Positions 36,291 to 45,690 are shown, counted from the stretch's first letter. The stretch: DNA of 64,000 nucleotides from Rickettsia typhi (GCA_945898725.1 CAMDIK010000007.1:3859-67858), one strand, 5' to 3'. Notes: generated by a model not told the origin, from the letters alone. Made by a program: numbers and translations.

Positions 36291-36313
36291 ATCGGAAGTG
36301 GGAATGTAATTAT

Positions 36314-36342
36314 ATTATACATCAAAATTGGTTGAATGTCAA
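36314..36342 (-). promoter_or_regulatory. Perfect sigma70-type consensus promoter (TTGACA-17 nt-TATAAT)
   Basis: The minus strand reads TTGACAttcaaccaattttgatgTATAAT (-35 = complement of 36337-36342, -10 = complement of 36314-36319). The ATG of the 401-aa ORF is 24 nt downstream. Confidence 0.65.
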
Positions 36343-36488
36343 GTTAAATTTAAGATTGTATTATGCAGAGGTGCTGCCACACCTCTTTGTTAAGTGATAC
36401 GTCTAATATCTGATCGAGCATTCTTGGTATAGGTGCACAATTCAAGGTTTGTAATAATGCTTTAAGCCCGTCACGCGCGCAATGATTT

Positions 36489-39400
36489 CTACATACATGA
36501 GAACTTGGAACTTTTTATAGCATAAGCGTCTGCAAAGTTACACACAAACTTGCACAATTTATCGGTATCTATTGTGGCCGGTATAAATATTTCAATTACA
36601 CTCATACTTGTCCAGTTATGAACCGGTCTGACAACTGACACACCTTCCATCGAAAGCGTCCTTGCTATACGTTTTACTGTATTCATAATTTCATTACTTT
36701 TGTCCGTTGTCAAGCATAACTTGCAACATTCAACGCCACTACGTGCCTCAGTGGTACAATCTTTAAAATTACAGTTACAGGAATTTTCACCATTACGTCT
36801 ACACGCTACTTCTGCCATGAGCATACCAGCTATTGTTGCCTTACCTGTAGTGTCAGAGCAATTAAGAGCTGTTTTCACTCTATTACTTCTTTCTGCCATT
36901 TTTCCAGTGTCGAAGATTGATAACGTATCTAATATTAATCTTTTCCATTTTTGTTCAGCTTTACTGTCGCCTTTTAACGCCTTTACACAGTTAGGTATGA
37001 CTGTTTTAAGCGCTGATAAGGTTTTAGGTTTCTCAGGTTTGTAAATTTTATCATAGCGTTGCTCCATTTGAAAATATTCCTTTTGCACACCCATATCACT
37101 TGACTCGCAAGCTCTACGCTTGAATATATTTGCCATTTTTTTATGCTTTTTACCAAATTCCTTCTTGGTTTCCTCTGAGGTTTCAGGTTTGTTTAACTCT
37201 TTTGCATCACGGGGTATAATCTTTTGATTGACCAAATAACCGAGTATTCTAAACGATTGATCGTCGCTGTTTTCAAAGCGTCTCGCCAAAGTCCTAACAC
37301 CTTTTCCGCTGGATCCTGACAATCCATCTGTGACATAGTCCTTGCCACATTGTGTGTTGAGGGTTATCTTTGTTTCAGACTTTACAGATTTACTGAATAA
37401 CTCCCCTTTTTCCTTTTCGGAAAGATATTTGGAACTCTTAATCACGCTCAGTATTGAGTGTCGTATAGGATCTTTACCGCGCACTAGATACAGAGGATTA
37501 TTCCACACGTCCATAAACAAATCTACAGGAATTGTAGCAACTTTACTTGCAATTCGATAGTAGGCTGTATCAGGTAGTTTGCATTCATCAGCAACAGGGG
37601 TGTTAAGTGTATTCATTAATATCACAATCAGAGTAGATAATATTTGTTGCCCATCTTGGGGATTGTTATTTTTTAAGAGCGTGTCAAGTAACTCCAAAAA
37701 ATCTCCAACCAATTTTTCAGTCATAACACTGTAAAAATCTTTCTGCACCCTATGGCTGAGCGTCGCATAATTCTCGATCATCTCTTGCGGATTGATTATG
37801 AACATTTCTGCCGGAGCAAGGTTTTTAAAAAGATCTTTTATACCAGGTTCTTTACTATTTTTTATAAAAAGTATCACAGAAACCTTCTCAATGTTTGACA
37901 TCTGCGCGTTAGTGAACATTTTTCCCAGTGCTGAGGTAAAAATATCCACCATTTTGCTCCGTGAATAGCTGTTCTTCGCAAGATTGTCCAATACTATGGC
38001 AAATTGCGTTTTATCGCTTATAATTTTCTTCCATTTTTTACTACCTCTTTTATTGGCGACCAATGCTAGAATGCACATCTTTTCTACACTCATTCGCTGG
38101 TTTTTGAATTGTTTGATCACTTTACAAACTTCCGGTTCGTCAGATTGCATATATTTTGACATTTTTTTCAGGTATTCTTTAAAACCCTTGTCATACTTCT
38201 CAAACTTGTATTGTTCTAGAAACTTGTGTGCCCGGGACTCTAGGCCGTATATTGAAAATTCATTGTTCCTATCTAGACACTTAATCAAGACCGCCAGCAT
38301 TTCATACTGTTCTTGATGTATTTGTGACGATGAATCAAGGGGCGTGAATTCATCTAACCCTTTTTGCACTAATGGATTCAAGACATACTTGAGAGTGTGC
38401 GCGCCTCTGGAAGTATTTTTGATAAATTCTACTATATTAGCTGCTTGGAGCAGCAGATCGCCTATTGGAACGTTACCTAATCTTAGTGATCTATAGATCT
38501 TACGCGCAGCCGTGTCAATTATATCAAATATTTCATCTTCGTTGTAATCGCATTGGTCTATTAACCATGTGTATTTGGAGTGATAAAGAAATACTTCGCT
38601 TAGATTATTACGAACCCAAGGCATAAAACACTTAAGCTTATTATCAAAATTTTTATGCTTCAATGCTTTAAGGTGGAGTATAAGTATCAGGAAATTGTTG
38701 TCCCATTGAAGATTTGGCATCTTTAGTTCTAGTTCTTTGGCTAAATCTGAGAAGTATCTTGACATATCAGCGACACCTCGCTGCGAAAGGTTTTTAGGAA
38801 CTGGTATATCCTTAAACTCAGACAAATTTATTGCATCAATTAGCCAATCCCTCATATTGTTCAAAGCTGTTATCGGATGTCGCTCTATATATTTTTCAAG
38901 ATTGAGCGCTATTTGCTTACTCTTTGAATCTTCATTCCCCTCAACTTCCTTTCTCATATTAATCAATGTGTTTAAGATGAGTCTGAGCATTGCTGTATGA
39001 TCGCTATTAATCTTGATCCAGGGTATATTTTTGCAAAACATACCTAGGATATCGCCATTGTCGTCTAAGAAGCATATTGCCTTTAATGACTCTTCTATGG
39101 TTGTTTTATCTGGTGATGATTTTTTCATTTCATGCAATAAAATTTGAACATTCCTCGCTATTTCTACAGGAGTGAAAAGTTGCATTAGTAATCTGATTTT
39201 GTTCATGAATAATTTTTTATCTATAAAAACACTCCCATTCTTGCCATTTGGATATTTCTTCCAGTCAGATTTTGACAATGTACTTATAATTTTCTTATTT
39301 ATTATTTCATGGTTCTGCACTTGTAATGAGTTTGTTGCAAACATTGCCAGAAATTTCAACAATTTTGCATTATCGAGCCAATAGAGATTTGCTTTATCTA

Positions 39401-40226
39401 ACTTCGTACGTATTTCTCCTTCTATTGCATCAATTAACTCTCTATCTATTGGCACTTCCGTCGTGCCTAGGAGGGTTTGAAATATTGCACGCTCTATCTT
39501 GGGTTCGTAGACTGGAGGCATTTTGATTAATGCGCGCAGAAATACCTGCATAAACACCCTTGGCTTATGCCTCGCTCTCGTCCAGATCTCATTGATTGCC
39601 GACTTCACCCGATGAGCGAATGTGTGAATATTCATATTCATATCCATATCCATATCCCCTTGTTCGACTTTGACTTGATCCCGCATTACATTATTAAAGA
39701 CTCGAAACAGATACTGTTTCCAATCTTCCTGGTCTGGATTGTGATCCACCTCACTATCTAGCATCTGCACTAGAAGTTCTAGGCGCTCCAAAATTCCCCG
39801 GGGGCAATTAAGCCCGAATTCCATCGTGGCCATTTGAGTCGCTATATTCTTTTGGATATCCGGGGCGGATACTGTCTTTAGTAACCTGACAAACTCTACA
39901 ACCCAGTTAGAAATTTCCCCAACCAATCTTTGGCCGTTTAAAACATTCCTCAGTGAATTCATGGTTTGACCCGCAAATTCTGCTTTTGGCGTTTTACCTA
40001 AATCTATAACAACCACCTCCTCAAGGTGTTTTTTTAAAAAAATCTCTAAGTAATTCACAGCCTCGACAGCCTCTGCCTTCGTGGATTCGGGAACTGCTCT
40101 GTTAGCTGTATTTATATCTGCAAATGTTGTCATATTTAGACCTACGTCTATTGAAAAAGCTATCTTGCTAAGAATCACATCCTCAAGTTTGTCTAGCGTA
40201 TTCAAGTGAGTTACTACTCCATCCAT
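36489..40226 (-). CDS. Hypothetical giant protein (~1245 aa), no recognisable domain (lineage-specific ORF)
   Basis: A 3.7-kb uninterrupted ORF. The track start at 40262 is TTG and overlaps the promoter -10, so the ATG at 40226 (MDGVVTHLNTL...) is the more likely start. Largely helical with a Cys-rich stretch near the C-terminus (ACRRNGENSCNCNFKDCTTEARSGVECCKLC). Confidence 0.65.
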   Translation of the reverse strand: MDGVVTHLNTLDKLEDVILSKIAFSIDVGLNMTTFADINTANRAVPESTKAEAVEAVNYLEIFLKKHLEEVVVIDLGKTPKAEFAGQTMNSLRNVLNGQRLVGEISNWVVEFVRLLKTVSAPDIQKNIATQMATMEFGLNCPRGILERLELLVQMLDSEVDHNPDQEDWKQYLFRVFNNVMRDQVKVEQGDMDMDMNMNIHTFAHRVKSAINEIWTRARHKPRVFMQVFLRALIKMPPVYEPKIERAIFQTLLGTTEVPIDRELIDAIEGEIRTKLDKANLYWLDNAKLLKFLAMFATNSLQVQNHEIINKKIISTLSKSDWKKYPNGKNGSVFIDKKLFMNKIRLLMQLFTPVEIARNVQILLHEMKKSSPDKTTIEESLKAICFLDDNGDILGMFCKNIPWIKINSDHTAMLRLILNTLINMRKEVEGNEDSKSKQIALNLEKYIERHPITALNNMRDWLIDAINLSEFKDIPVPKNLSQRGVADMSRYFSDLAKELELKMPNLQWDNNFLILILHLKALKHKNFDNKLKCFMPWVRNNLSEVFLYHSKYTWLIDQCDYNEDEIFDIIDTAARKIYRSLRLGNVPIGDLLLQAANIVEFIKNTSRGAHTLKYVLNPLVQKGLDEFTPLDSSSQIHQEQYEMLAVLIKCLDRNNEFSIYGLESRAHKFLEQYKFEKYDKGFKEYLKKMSKYMQSDEPEVCKVIKQFKNQRMSVEKMCILALVANKRGSKKWKKIISDKTQFAIVLDNLAKNSYSRSKMVDIFTSALGKMFTNAQMSNIEKVSVILFIKNSKEPGIKDLFKNLAPAEMFIINPQEMIENYATLSHRVQKDFYSVMTEKLVGDFLELLDTLLKNNNPQDGQQILSTLIVILMNTLNTPVADECKLPDTAYYRIASKVATIPVDLFMDVWNNPLYLVRGKDPIRHSILSVIKSSKYLSEKEKGELFSKSVKSETKITLNTQCGKDYVTDGLSGSSGKGVRTLARRFENSDDQSFRILGYLVNQKIIPRDAKELNKPETSEETKKEFGKKHKKMANIFKRRACESSDMGVQKEYFQMEQRYDKIYKPEKPKTLSALKTVIPNCVKALKGDSKAEQKWKRLILDTLSIFDTGKMAERSNRVKTALNCSDTTGKATIAGMLMAEVACRRNGENSCNCNFKDCTTEARSGVECCKLCLTTDKSNEIMNTVKRIARTLSMEGVSVVRPVHNWTSMSVIEIFIPATIDTDKLCKFVCNFADAYAIKSSKFSCM

Positions 40227-45452: not shown

Positions 45453-45497
45453 GCTCTTTGTTACCTTCGGATTTGAAGTTTTGGGAAATGAACGGAG

Positions 45498-45638
45498 CTA
45501 AGATTGCCTTTCTATTGAATACTTTTCCTCATTCCAGTCCACTTTCATAACCGCACTTGTCATTTGACTCCATTCTTTATGAAGTTGAAGCATTTCTGCT
45601 GAAACCCTTCCGGATCTATCTTTTGCTTTACGTTGCAT
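45498..45638 (-). CDS. Possible small ORF (46 aa) at the head of the transcript for the 541-aa gene
   Basis: My own translation gives MQRKAKDRSGRVSAEMLQLHKEWSQMTSAVMKVDWNEEKYSIERQS. Its ATG is 24 nt downstream of the -10 at 45662-45667, the same geometry as the other two consensus promoters. No homology evidence. Confidence 0.35.
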   Translation of the reverse strand: MQRKAKDRSGRVSAEMLQLHKEWSQMTSAVMKVDWNEEKYSIERQS

Positions 45639-45661
45639 AAATTATCTAATAATCTAATACC

Positions 45662-45690
45662 ATTATACCATATTTTTACCAACTTGTCAA
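45662..45690 (-). promoter_or_regulatory. Perfect sigma70-type consensus promoter (TTGACA-17 nt-TATAAT)
   Basis: The minus strand reads TTGACAagttggtaaaaatatggTATAAT (-35 = complement of 45685-45690, -10 = complement of 45662-45667). It lies in the divergent alaS intergenic region. Confidence 0.6.

Follow-up and report, generated by a model that had tools for sequence, protein, structure and literature searches.

Many secreted effectors of host-associated bacteria are lineage-specific orphans, and in Legionella and Coxiella the Dot/Icm substrates carry the PmrA box, in which a TTAATATT-like motif is repeated in tandem around the -35 and which goes together with a two-component regulator and a type IV secretion system. 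Among natural promoters, full matches to the sigma-70 consensus are almost absent (PMC7057261). Putative mobile promoters were screened by Nijveen, Matus-Garcia and van Passel in 2012 as sequences of at least 50 nucleotides (nt), with at least 80% identity, located within -150 to -50 (PMC3575422). Anti-Shine-Dalgarno (anti-SD) loss is documented mainly in insect symbionts with tiny genomes, flavobacteria and haemotropic mycoplasmas (PMC3457768, PMC7782861). Here we describe a stretch of 64,000 nt (GCA_945898725.1, CAMDIK010000007.1:3859-67858; the window, in what follows) in which three full-consensus promoters, P1, P2 and P3, each head an orphan open reading frame (ORF). The kinds of element represented here are known ones: consensus promoters, promoter reuse and orphan islets. 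The reading towards which we lean, with slightly more belief than doubt, is that P1-P3 are strong, factor-independent promoters that plug non-native genes into the short-leader layout of the resident genes.

Three sites with the pattern TTGACA-N17-TATAAT, matching the consensus at 12 of 12 positions, are present on the minus strand. P1 (TTGACAttcaaccaattttgatgTATAAT, 36314-36342) is the core of a 33-nt cassette, P2 (TTGACAttcaaccaattttggtgTATAAT, 40251-40279) belongs to the second copy of this cassette, and P3 (TTGACAagttggtaaaaatatggTATAAT, 45662-45690) is divergent from alaS. An earlier reading made from the sequence alone had placed perfect promoters at these positions, and an exact pattern search finds just these three. 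On both strands of the 64 kb, dinucleotide-preserving shuffles gave a mean of 0.03 such sites, and none of 100 shuffles gave three. When all N17 sites are ranked by mismatches there are three with none, none with one and 21 with two, which makes 24 sites at two mismatches or fewer against 15.8 expected; since no site has a single mismatch, P1-P3 are a class of their own and not the tail of a continuum. No other full-consensus site exists in the window, as had been claimed by eye. With spacers of 16-18 nt the next best are two sites at 11/12, both N16 (51858, plus strand; 19162, minus strand), and neither is suited to serve a gene, the first lying on the strand opposite to the local genes and the second within nrdA. 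Start regions other than those of P1-P3 score 10/12 at best. The 16S rRNA gene has a TTGACA at 30589-30594 without a good -10, and here too the earlier remark was right. Given the rarity of full-consensus promoters in nature (PMC7057261), three of them within 9.4 kb are notable.

The position of the three sites is equally regular. Each is intergenic (gaps of 113-198 nt) and points at an ATG on the same strand, with 23 (P1), 24 (P2) and 23 nt (P3) separating the final T of the -10 from the A of the start codon; the distances of 24, 25 and 24 nt reported before are the same measurement counted inclusively. This spacing predicts a leader of about 16-17 nt, and the transcripts would not be leaderless. 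The upstream flanks are A/T-rich, as is all intergenic DNA in the window. At P3 the -10 is of the extended kind (TGgTATAAT) and a T/A-tract lies upstream, the TGn motif being found at P3 only. Hexamers, a spacing within 17 +/- 1 nt, intergenic position and orientation are those of sigma-70 promoters. P1-P3 share with the canonical members of this group, including near-consensus phage early promoters and engineered consensus promoters, the TTGACA, the 17-nt spacer, the TATAAT and perhaps the A/T-rich flank, and like them are aimed at a start codon from an intergenic position; P3 adds the extended -10. They differ in their setting, as the resident promoters here combine a good -35 with a weak -10 and the full match occurs three times in 9.4 kb. 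In contrast to phage early promoters, no sequence or protein link to phages was found for P1-P3 or for the orphans.

Three minus-strand ORFs lie downstream of these sites. The ORF under P1 (35085-36290) encodes 401 amino acids (aa) and is predicted to be all-helical with a basic C-terminus. P2 precedes an ORF of 1245 aa, counted from the ATG (36489-40226); a TTG at 40262 lies within the P2 promoter and is not the start of this ORF. Downstream of P3 there is an ORF of 541 aa (43827-45452) with a K/E-rich coiled-coil repeat. None of them has a match in Pfam, PHROGs, NCBIfam or PDB sequences, a homologue beyond itself among 5.8 billion proteins, or a tblastn match in phage or plasmid records. The absence of recognisable homology is therefore confirmed more strongly than it had been claimed, and so is the association within the window, where each of the three full-consensus sites heads a true orphan. 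In the 1245-aa and 401-aa ORFs the GC content of the first codon position exceeds that of the second (GC1>GC2), a coding-like pattern. No Sec signal is visible by eye, and single-sequence AlphaFold models are unusable (predicted local distance difference test scores, pLDDT, of 41 and 36). Paralogy was examined for two pairs, each smaller orphan against the 1245-aa ORF, and none was found, either for the 401-aa ORF (best BLASTP E value 1.4) or for the 541-aa ORF. In an exhaustive HMMER pass over 1.84 billion cluster representatives the 1245-aa protein had one match, P0011, which was rejected as a repeat-driven artefact.

The orphans are also atypical in composition. Their synonymous codon choice was scored against 45 other ORFs of the window with leave-one-out, the native mean being 0.122 with a standard deviation of 0.029. 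The 1245-aa ORF scores -0.010 (z -4.6), the 541-aa ORF 0.001 (z -4.2) and the 401-aa ORF 0.058 (z -2.2), and a contingency test on the pooled orphan codons gives chi2 279 with 41 degrees of freedom (p 4e-37). Compared with the other ORFs, isoleucine is encoded by ATA in 56% versus 28%, valine by GTC in 14% versus 3% and cysteine by TGT in 59% versus 28%. Six other ORFs that have no Pfam match (orf537, 214, 197, 391, 344 and 332) score native, as do the neighbours on the same strand, fusA, pdhC, folP and folBK. The signal thus does not come from strand, expression level or missing annotation and, as the orphans are atypical while the six ORFs without Pfam match are not, the link between perfect promoters and non-native genes is real within the window. 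In a strand-symmetric tetranucleotide scan with 2-kb windows, 35001-38500 reaches z 2.0-2.4 and contains the only scan windows above 2 besides the 16S gene; the region of the 541-aa ORF (43501-45500) reaches 1.8, and the housekeeping stretch between the orphan regions stays below 0.6. In codon and tetranucleotide usage the orphans differ from their surroundings, as genomic islands do, and no integrase or transposase domain, which would give an island its mobility, is found in the Pfam annotation of the window. We infer that the orphans are insertions into a native housekeeping set and that they are foreign, very young or fast-evolving; the data do not separate these three origins. Three of the control ORFs, of 537, 214 and 197 aa, lie consecutively on the plus strand (12995-15846), have no match in Pfam or NCBIfam and show native codon usage; they have a promoter of the resident type, with TTGAAT 51 nt before the start.

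The layout of the resident genes shows what P1-P3 have in common with their surroundings. The 3' tail of the 16S rRNA (32256-32270; gene at 30761-32269, plus strand) reads GGATTACAACCAAT versus GGATCACCTCCTTA of the E. coli type. Its anti-SD core is changed from CCTCC to CAACC, while the pairing of helix 45 is kept. Hardly any gene of the window has GGAG or AGGA upstream of its start, and pairing of the -20 to -1 regions with the organism's own or the canonical 16S tail gives duplex energies no better than in coding controls. An altered Shine-Dalgarno (SD) sequence matching the new tail was considered and rejected, because complementarity to it is not enriched upstream of starts. A fixed promoter distance was found: in 11 of 49 genes a TTGA[CA][AT] box begins 49-54 nt ahead of the start codon, where 0.84 would be expected per bin, and eight of these 11 are native (amine oxidase, maeB, orf537, nuoN, YgjP, fusA, fabZ and orf391). 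Where the upstream gap is 55 nt or longer, 13 of 25 genes match TTGACA at 5/6 or better 44-57 nt ahead of the start; where it is shorter, 3 of 24 do. Examples of starts with a -35-like box (TTGACA, TTGACT or TTGAAA) about 52 nt upstream are maeB (12865, minus), amine oxidase (8569, minus), YgjP (9356, minus), fabZ (20613, plus) and fusA (35023, minus). Native promoters aligned on the -35 have weak and variable -10 regions. This implies that a uniform leader of about 16 nt would be the default layout in the window. Because both the spacing and the short leader without SD are shared by the resident genes, P1-P3 differ from them only by the perfect -35 and the perfect -10. The sequence-only reading had taken an SD-less leader of about 17 nt as a trait of the orphans, which is not borne out: the anti-SD of the 16S is lost, a -35 at about 52 nt is common, and the short leader belongs to the residents as well.

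As in the bacteria reported to have lost the anti-SD (PMC3457768, PMC7782861), the CCUCC core has given way to another sequence, CAACC in this case, with helix 45 preserved and no SD-like signal upstream of genes. Unlike those, this organism keeps arginine and folate synthesis, carAB, malic enzyme and genes for lipopolysaccharide (LPS). The fixed spacing from promoter to start seen here is not described in Lim et al. 2012 (PMC3457768) or Nikolaeva et al. 2020 (PMC7782861). Loss of the anti-SD together with this spacing may matter more than the promoters themselves, and an alphaproteobacterium whose metabolism is fairly complete and whose leaders would be only about 16 nt long would lend itself to the study of translation start without SD pairing. 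It is unusual to find the anti-SD lost where the arginine, folate and LPS pathways are still encoded. A different arrangement is seen upstream of rnj (18245-18260, minus strand), where TATAATATAAT immediately precedes the RNase J start codon. Of the two TATAAT motifs, one is adjacent to this ATG and the other stops 5 nt short of it, and a TTGACT box lies 48 nt upstream; the rnj transcript might be leaderless or nearly so.

P1 and P2 share more than their hexamers. They are identical at 32 of 33 positions over 36312-36344 and 40249-40281, and their spacer (TTCAACCAATTTTGRTG) at 16 of 17, with one A/G difference, whereas the spacer of P3 is unrelated and has only the hexamers in common with them. 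Beyond the 33-nt core, the flanks of P1 and P2 agree at the chance level of AT-rich DNA (10/17), and the ungapped repeat of 50 nt and 84% identity reported by the repeat finder consists of these 33 real nt plus AT-rich flank. The two copies precede genes that are not homologous to each other, and the proposal that a cassette had been duplicated in front of orphans stands. P1 and P2 stem from a single core promoter that was reused before unrelated genes, and P3 is most likely an independent instance. The cassette occurs twice in the window, and as a query (TTGACATTCAACCAATTTTNNNNTATAAT) it gave 0 matches in GTDB genomes, JGI metagenomes and viral contigs; the genome of this organism is evidently outside those sets. 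P1 and P2 resemble putative mobile promoters (PMC3575422) in being nearly identical before non-paralogous genes with no recognisable mobile element. They differ from them in length and position, since their real similarity is confined to the 33 nt of the core promoter, at about -55 to -21 relative to the ATG, and in number, with only two copies in 64 kb and none in the public collections searched. No inverted repeats surround either cassette, unlike the outward promoters of insertion sequences (IS) or miniature inverted-repeat transposable elements (MITE) such as Correia elements. The 11-mer ATCAGATATTA abuts the -35 in P2 and is 61 nt away from the -35 in P1, and the 61-nt segment between it and the P1 -35, which bears a hairpin, is unique in the window. 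This hints at an ancestral cassette of about 44 nt whose P1 copy was later interrupted; the significance of this match is weak (roughly 0.01 given its placement), and elsewhere in the window, too, 11-mers that match the P1 upstream region are frequent. The 8-mer CAACCAAT, common to the P1/P2 spacer and the 16S tail, has 8 occurrences in the window and was taken as chance.

Together these observations suggest the following arrangement. Two atypical insertions (about 35085-40281 and 43827-45690) would lie within a run of native genes that share a strand (erpA-folBK-folP-pdhC ... fusA), alaS being upstream and divergent. They would carry the three orphans, each transcription unit being headed by a full-consensus promoter for the housekeeping sigma factor with an A/T-rich upstream flank. 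P1-P3 may act as strong sigma-70 promoters that need no activator, and genes that are non-native or very young would thereby be transcribed without a dedicated regulator. The 23-24 nt from the -10 to the ATG would give the same SD-less leader of about 16 nt as in resident genes, and one short cassette would supply both transcription and the local requirement for translation. In this arrangement one core promoter would have been reused before an unrelated gene to give P1 and P2, P3 would have reached the same hexamers independently, and transcription would probably run on into the downstream housekeeping genes. That the promoters are active and strong, that the orphans were acquired or arose recently, and that transcription reads through are all conclusions drawn from DNA sequence. 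The sequence-only reading had gone further, describing a co-regulated and very strongly transcribed set. Of that interpretation the improbable promoters, the orphans and the P1/P2 copy are retained, and the specificity of leader and SD is dropped. Very strong transcription is a prediction from the rules of E. coli. Co-regulation is plausible for P1 and P2 only, which have their spacer in common, P3 sharing the hexamers alone. If the promoters are active, they would offer a sequence handle for genes that are non-native, highly expressed and perhaps directed at the host in an uncultured bacterium of intracellular type, and the copying of a core promoter between unrelated genes would be on view.

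Several points weigh against this arrangement. Very tight promoter contacts can slow promoter escape of the E. coli RNA polymerase. The resident promoters seem to rely on the -35 and tolerate a poor -10, the gain from a perfect -10 with the resident RNA polymerase is uncertain, and strength is extrapolated from the sigma-70 rules of E. coli. The GC content of the orphans equals that of the neighbouring genes, and at their borders no tRNA, integrase, flanking direct repeats or inverted repeats were found, only matches of A/T runs. Youth or relaxed selection, instead of transfer, could underlie the atypical codon usage. The association covers 64 kb of the genome and three cases, two of which share their promoter by descent; the organism's other retrievable contigs, from three assemblies of one strain, repeat or overlap the window but for roughly 1.8 kb outside the analysed sequence. 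The gene behind P3 is interrupted by an in-frame TAG, so at least this one may be decaying. Finally, a spacer conserved at 16 of 17 positions beside flanks at chance level hints at a constraint beyond promoter strength.

A bolder extension is possible, though we give it much less credence. SD/anti-SD pairing may have been abandoned in this lineage, with the transcription start itself positioning the ribosome. Most transcription units would start from a -35 about 52 nt ahead of the start codon and have a uniform leader of about 16 nt. A block of about 55 nt, made up of the promoter and this fixed leader, would then suffice as a portable expression signal, perfect cassettes would switch on newly acquired or newly born genes, and P1 and P2 would be such reuse caught in the act. 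If this is true, a genome scan for the cassette would list the newest, possibly host-directed, genes.

The conserved spacer lends some weight to regulated promoters, an alternative that we hold to be unlikely but that survives better than the other rivals. Here the P1/P2 spacer would be the site of a repressor or another factor, the 1245-aa and 401-aa genes would form a small conditional regulon, active for example in the host, and the perfect hexamers would ensure a high induced level. A strong core promoter combined with a repressor is a common design, and selection on the spacer explains its 16/17 identity between flanks at chance level better than a recent neutral copy does. Against this, no convincing dyad symmetry is seen in the P1/P2 spacer by direct reading, the unrelated spacer of P3 leaves no operator common to all three, and no regulator gene is found nearby in the Pfam annotation. 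A short and very recent copy, or a gene-conversion tract, gives the same pattern.

The gene order raises the question of which genes the promoters serve. On the minus strand it runs P3, the 46-codon and 541-aa frame described below, erpA, folBK, folP, pdhC, P2, the 1245-aa ORF, a hairpin, P1, the 401-aa ORF and fusA, which starts 61 nt downstream of the 401-aa ORF. No terminator-like site was found in this gap or in those of 25, 0, -4 and 51 nt, and read-through into the downstream housekeeping genes is therefore likely. On this basis P1 might exist mainly for fusA and P3 for erpA-folBK-folP-pdhC, with the orphans as passengers that landed or arose in between, which we regard as improbable. 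The uninterrupted gaps are in its favour, and so is the situation of fusA, a highly expressed gene that stands apart from its usual rpsL-rpsG context (neither gene is in the window) and whose own -10 is poor. However, the promoters are at the canonical 23-24 nt from the ATGs of the orphans and not from housekeeping starts. In addition, fusA has its own -35-like box TTGAAA (35070-35075, minus strand), 52 nt before its ATG and in the geometry of P1-P3, which suggests a weak promoter of its own besides read-through from P1. P2 drives just the 1245-aa ORF ahead of the hairpin and P1, and the other housekeeping units of the window get by on weak promoters. The hairpin, AGAGGTGU-GGCA-GCACCUCU (36367-36386, minus strand), is situated between the stop of the 1245-aa ORF and P1, has 8 bp and no T-run, and may be a 3'-end or insulator structure. 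The gap between the 1245-aa and 401-aa ORFs as a whole is not unusually stable (z -0.54), this being a single local hairpin.

The gene behind P3 is the least intact of the three. A 46-codon ORF (45498-45638, minus strand) starts with an ATG at 45638, 23 nt past the -10 of P3, and ends with a TAG at 45498-45500. It had been described as a separate ORF followed by the 541-aa ORF; the order is correct, but the two share one frame of 603 codons, interrupted by this single TAG. No -35-like box precedes the 541-aa ORF itself (best 3/6), which must therefore be transcribed from P3. From the shared frame and the missing box, the original gene was most likely the 603-codon ORF starting 23 nt past the P3 -10, of which the 46-codon ORF is likely to be the N-terminus. 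The TAG is present in two assemblies, and the assembly in ENA carries the same two gene calls (46 aa and the 541-aa frame). Most likely the P3 gene now bears a premature stop or relies on re-initiation 45 nt later, and the TAG could be either a recent nonsense mutation or part of a re-initiation arrangement. Within the 541-aa ORF there is a tandem repeat with a period of 39 nt (44255-44441, minus strand), which encodes the K/E-rich coiled coil. The assemblies differ there in length by 108 nt, or 36 codons (44252-44359), the protein having 505 aa in the ENA assembly ERZ27280275, and a Logan contig ends within the 39-nt repeat. The difference is either true variation in copy number or an assembly collapse.

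These features are compatible with a third alternative, in which the orphans would be DNA that is decaying or has no function. The consensus sites would then be inert leftovers, such as those of a mobile element that has degraded or of the early region of a prophage. It is favoured by the in-frame TAG, by the poor codon adaptation, by the lack of any homologue found and by a repeat region that is unstable or hard to assemble. Nevertheless, intact ORFs of 1245 and 401 codons at 37% GC are not sustainable by chance and have the coding-like GC1>GC2 pattern, all 12 promoter positions are retained three times, and no phage, plasmid or viral matches and no element boundaries were found, so that we consider decay of the whole set quite improbable. 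An artefact, whether chance in AT-rich DNA (37% GC), chimerism of a metagenome-assembled contig or contamination by vector or synthetic DNA, is very remote in view of the shuffles, the concordance of three assemblies and the absence of any plasmid match, and to our knowledge the spacers of P1-P3 are unlike those of common synthetic promoters. Across all junctions no base differs between the Logan, ENA and window assemblies, save for 2 single-nucleotide polymorphisms and the repeat length.

For the orphans, a possible role as effectors or in host interaction is an analogy with other host-associated bacteria. Like the orphan genomic islets of those bacteria, they combine atypical codon and oligonucleotide usage with a lack of homologues and a location among housekeeping genes, and they have K/E-rich coiled-coil tandem repeats of possibly variable copy number. 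In contrast to such islets, there is no integrase, tRNA or flanking repeat here, GC content is that of the neighbours, and no secretion system is encoded in the window. No domain match, usable structure model or secretion system within the window points to an effector role. The tandem motif of PmrA-type effector regulons does not occur at P1-P3, and genes for its regulator or secretion system were not found within the window.

The window (37% GC) belongs to a metagenome-assembled contig and encodes an alphaproteobacterial housekeeping set. Its Pfam content includes tolQR, lpdA, recA, lpxI, fabZ-lpxA, bamA, maeB, rnj, nrdA, nuoK, nuoN and nuoE, together with an arginine operon with carAB, folP, folBK, erpA, pdhC, fusA and alaS. 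The closest genome for PdhC, and the sole genome match, is the Rickettsia endosymbiont of Argas persicus with 47% identity, and at 90% identity the housekeeping proteins remain singletons in a set of 15 billion sequences; the lineage is thus poorly sampled. Sequence traits of elongation factor G (EF-G) and the rRNA gene organisation also point, we presume, to a Rickettsiales-like source. On the single PdhC match and these traits, the source looks like an uncultured Rickettsiales-like alphaproteobacterium.

Some further features of the window were noted. The 16S gene stands alone (30761-32920 region), no 23S, 5S or spacer tRNAs follow it, and fusA is convergent to it. Just downstream of the 16S there are AT-rich tandem repeats of 26 nt (32394-32482), and no tRNA gene was found in the whole 64 kb. 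A tandem duplication of 122 nt (21761-22004; 99% identity) covers the 3' end of lpxA together with sequence upstream of nuoK, and part of a third copy is present at 22032-22058. In the arginine operon, an ORF of 498 aa (49827-51323, minus strand) has domains of the AstE/AspA-type deacylase at both ends and, in its middle, MurB-like FAD-binding and C-terminal domains, an odd nested architecture.

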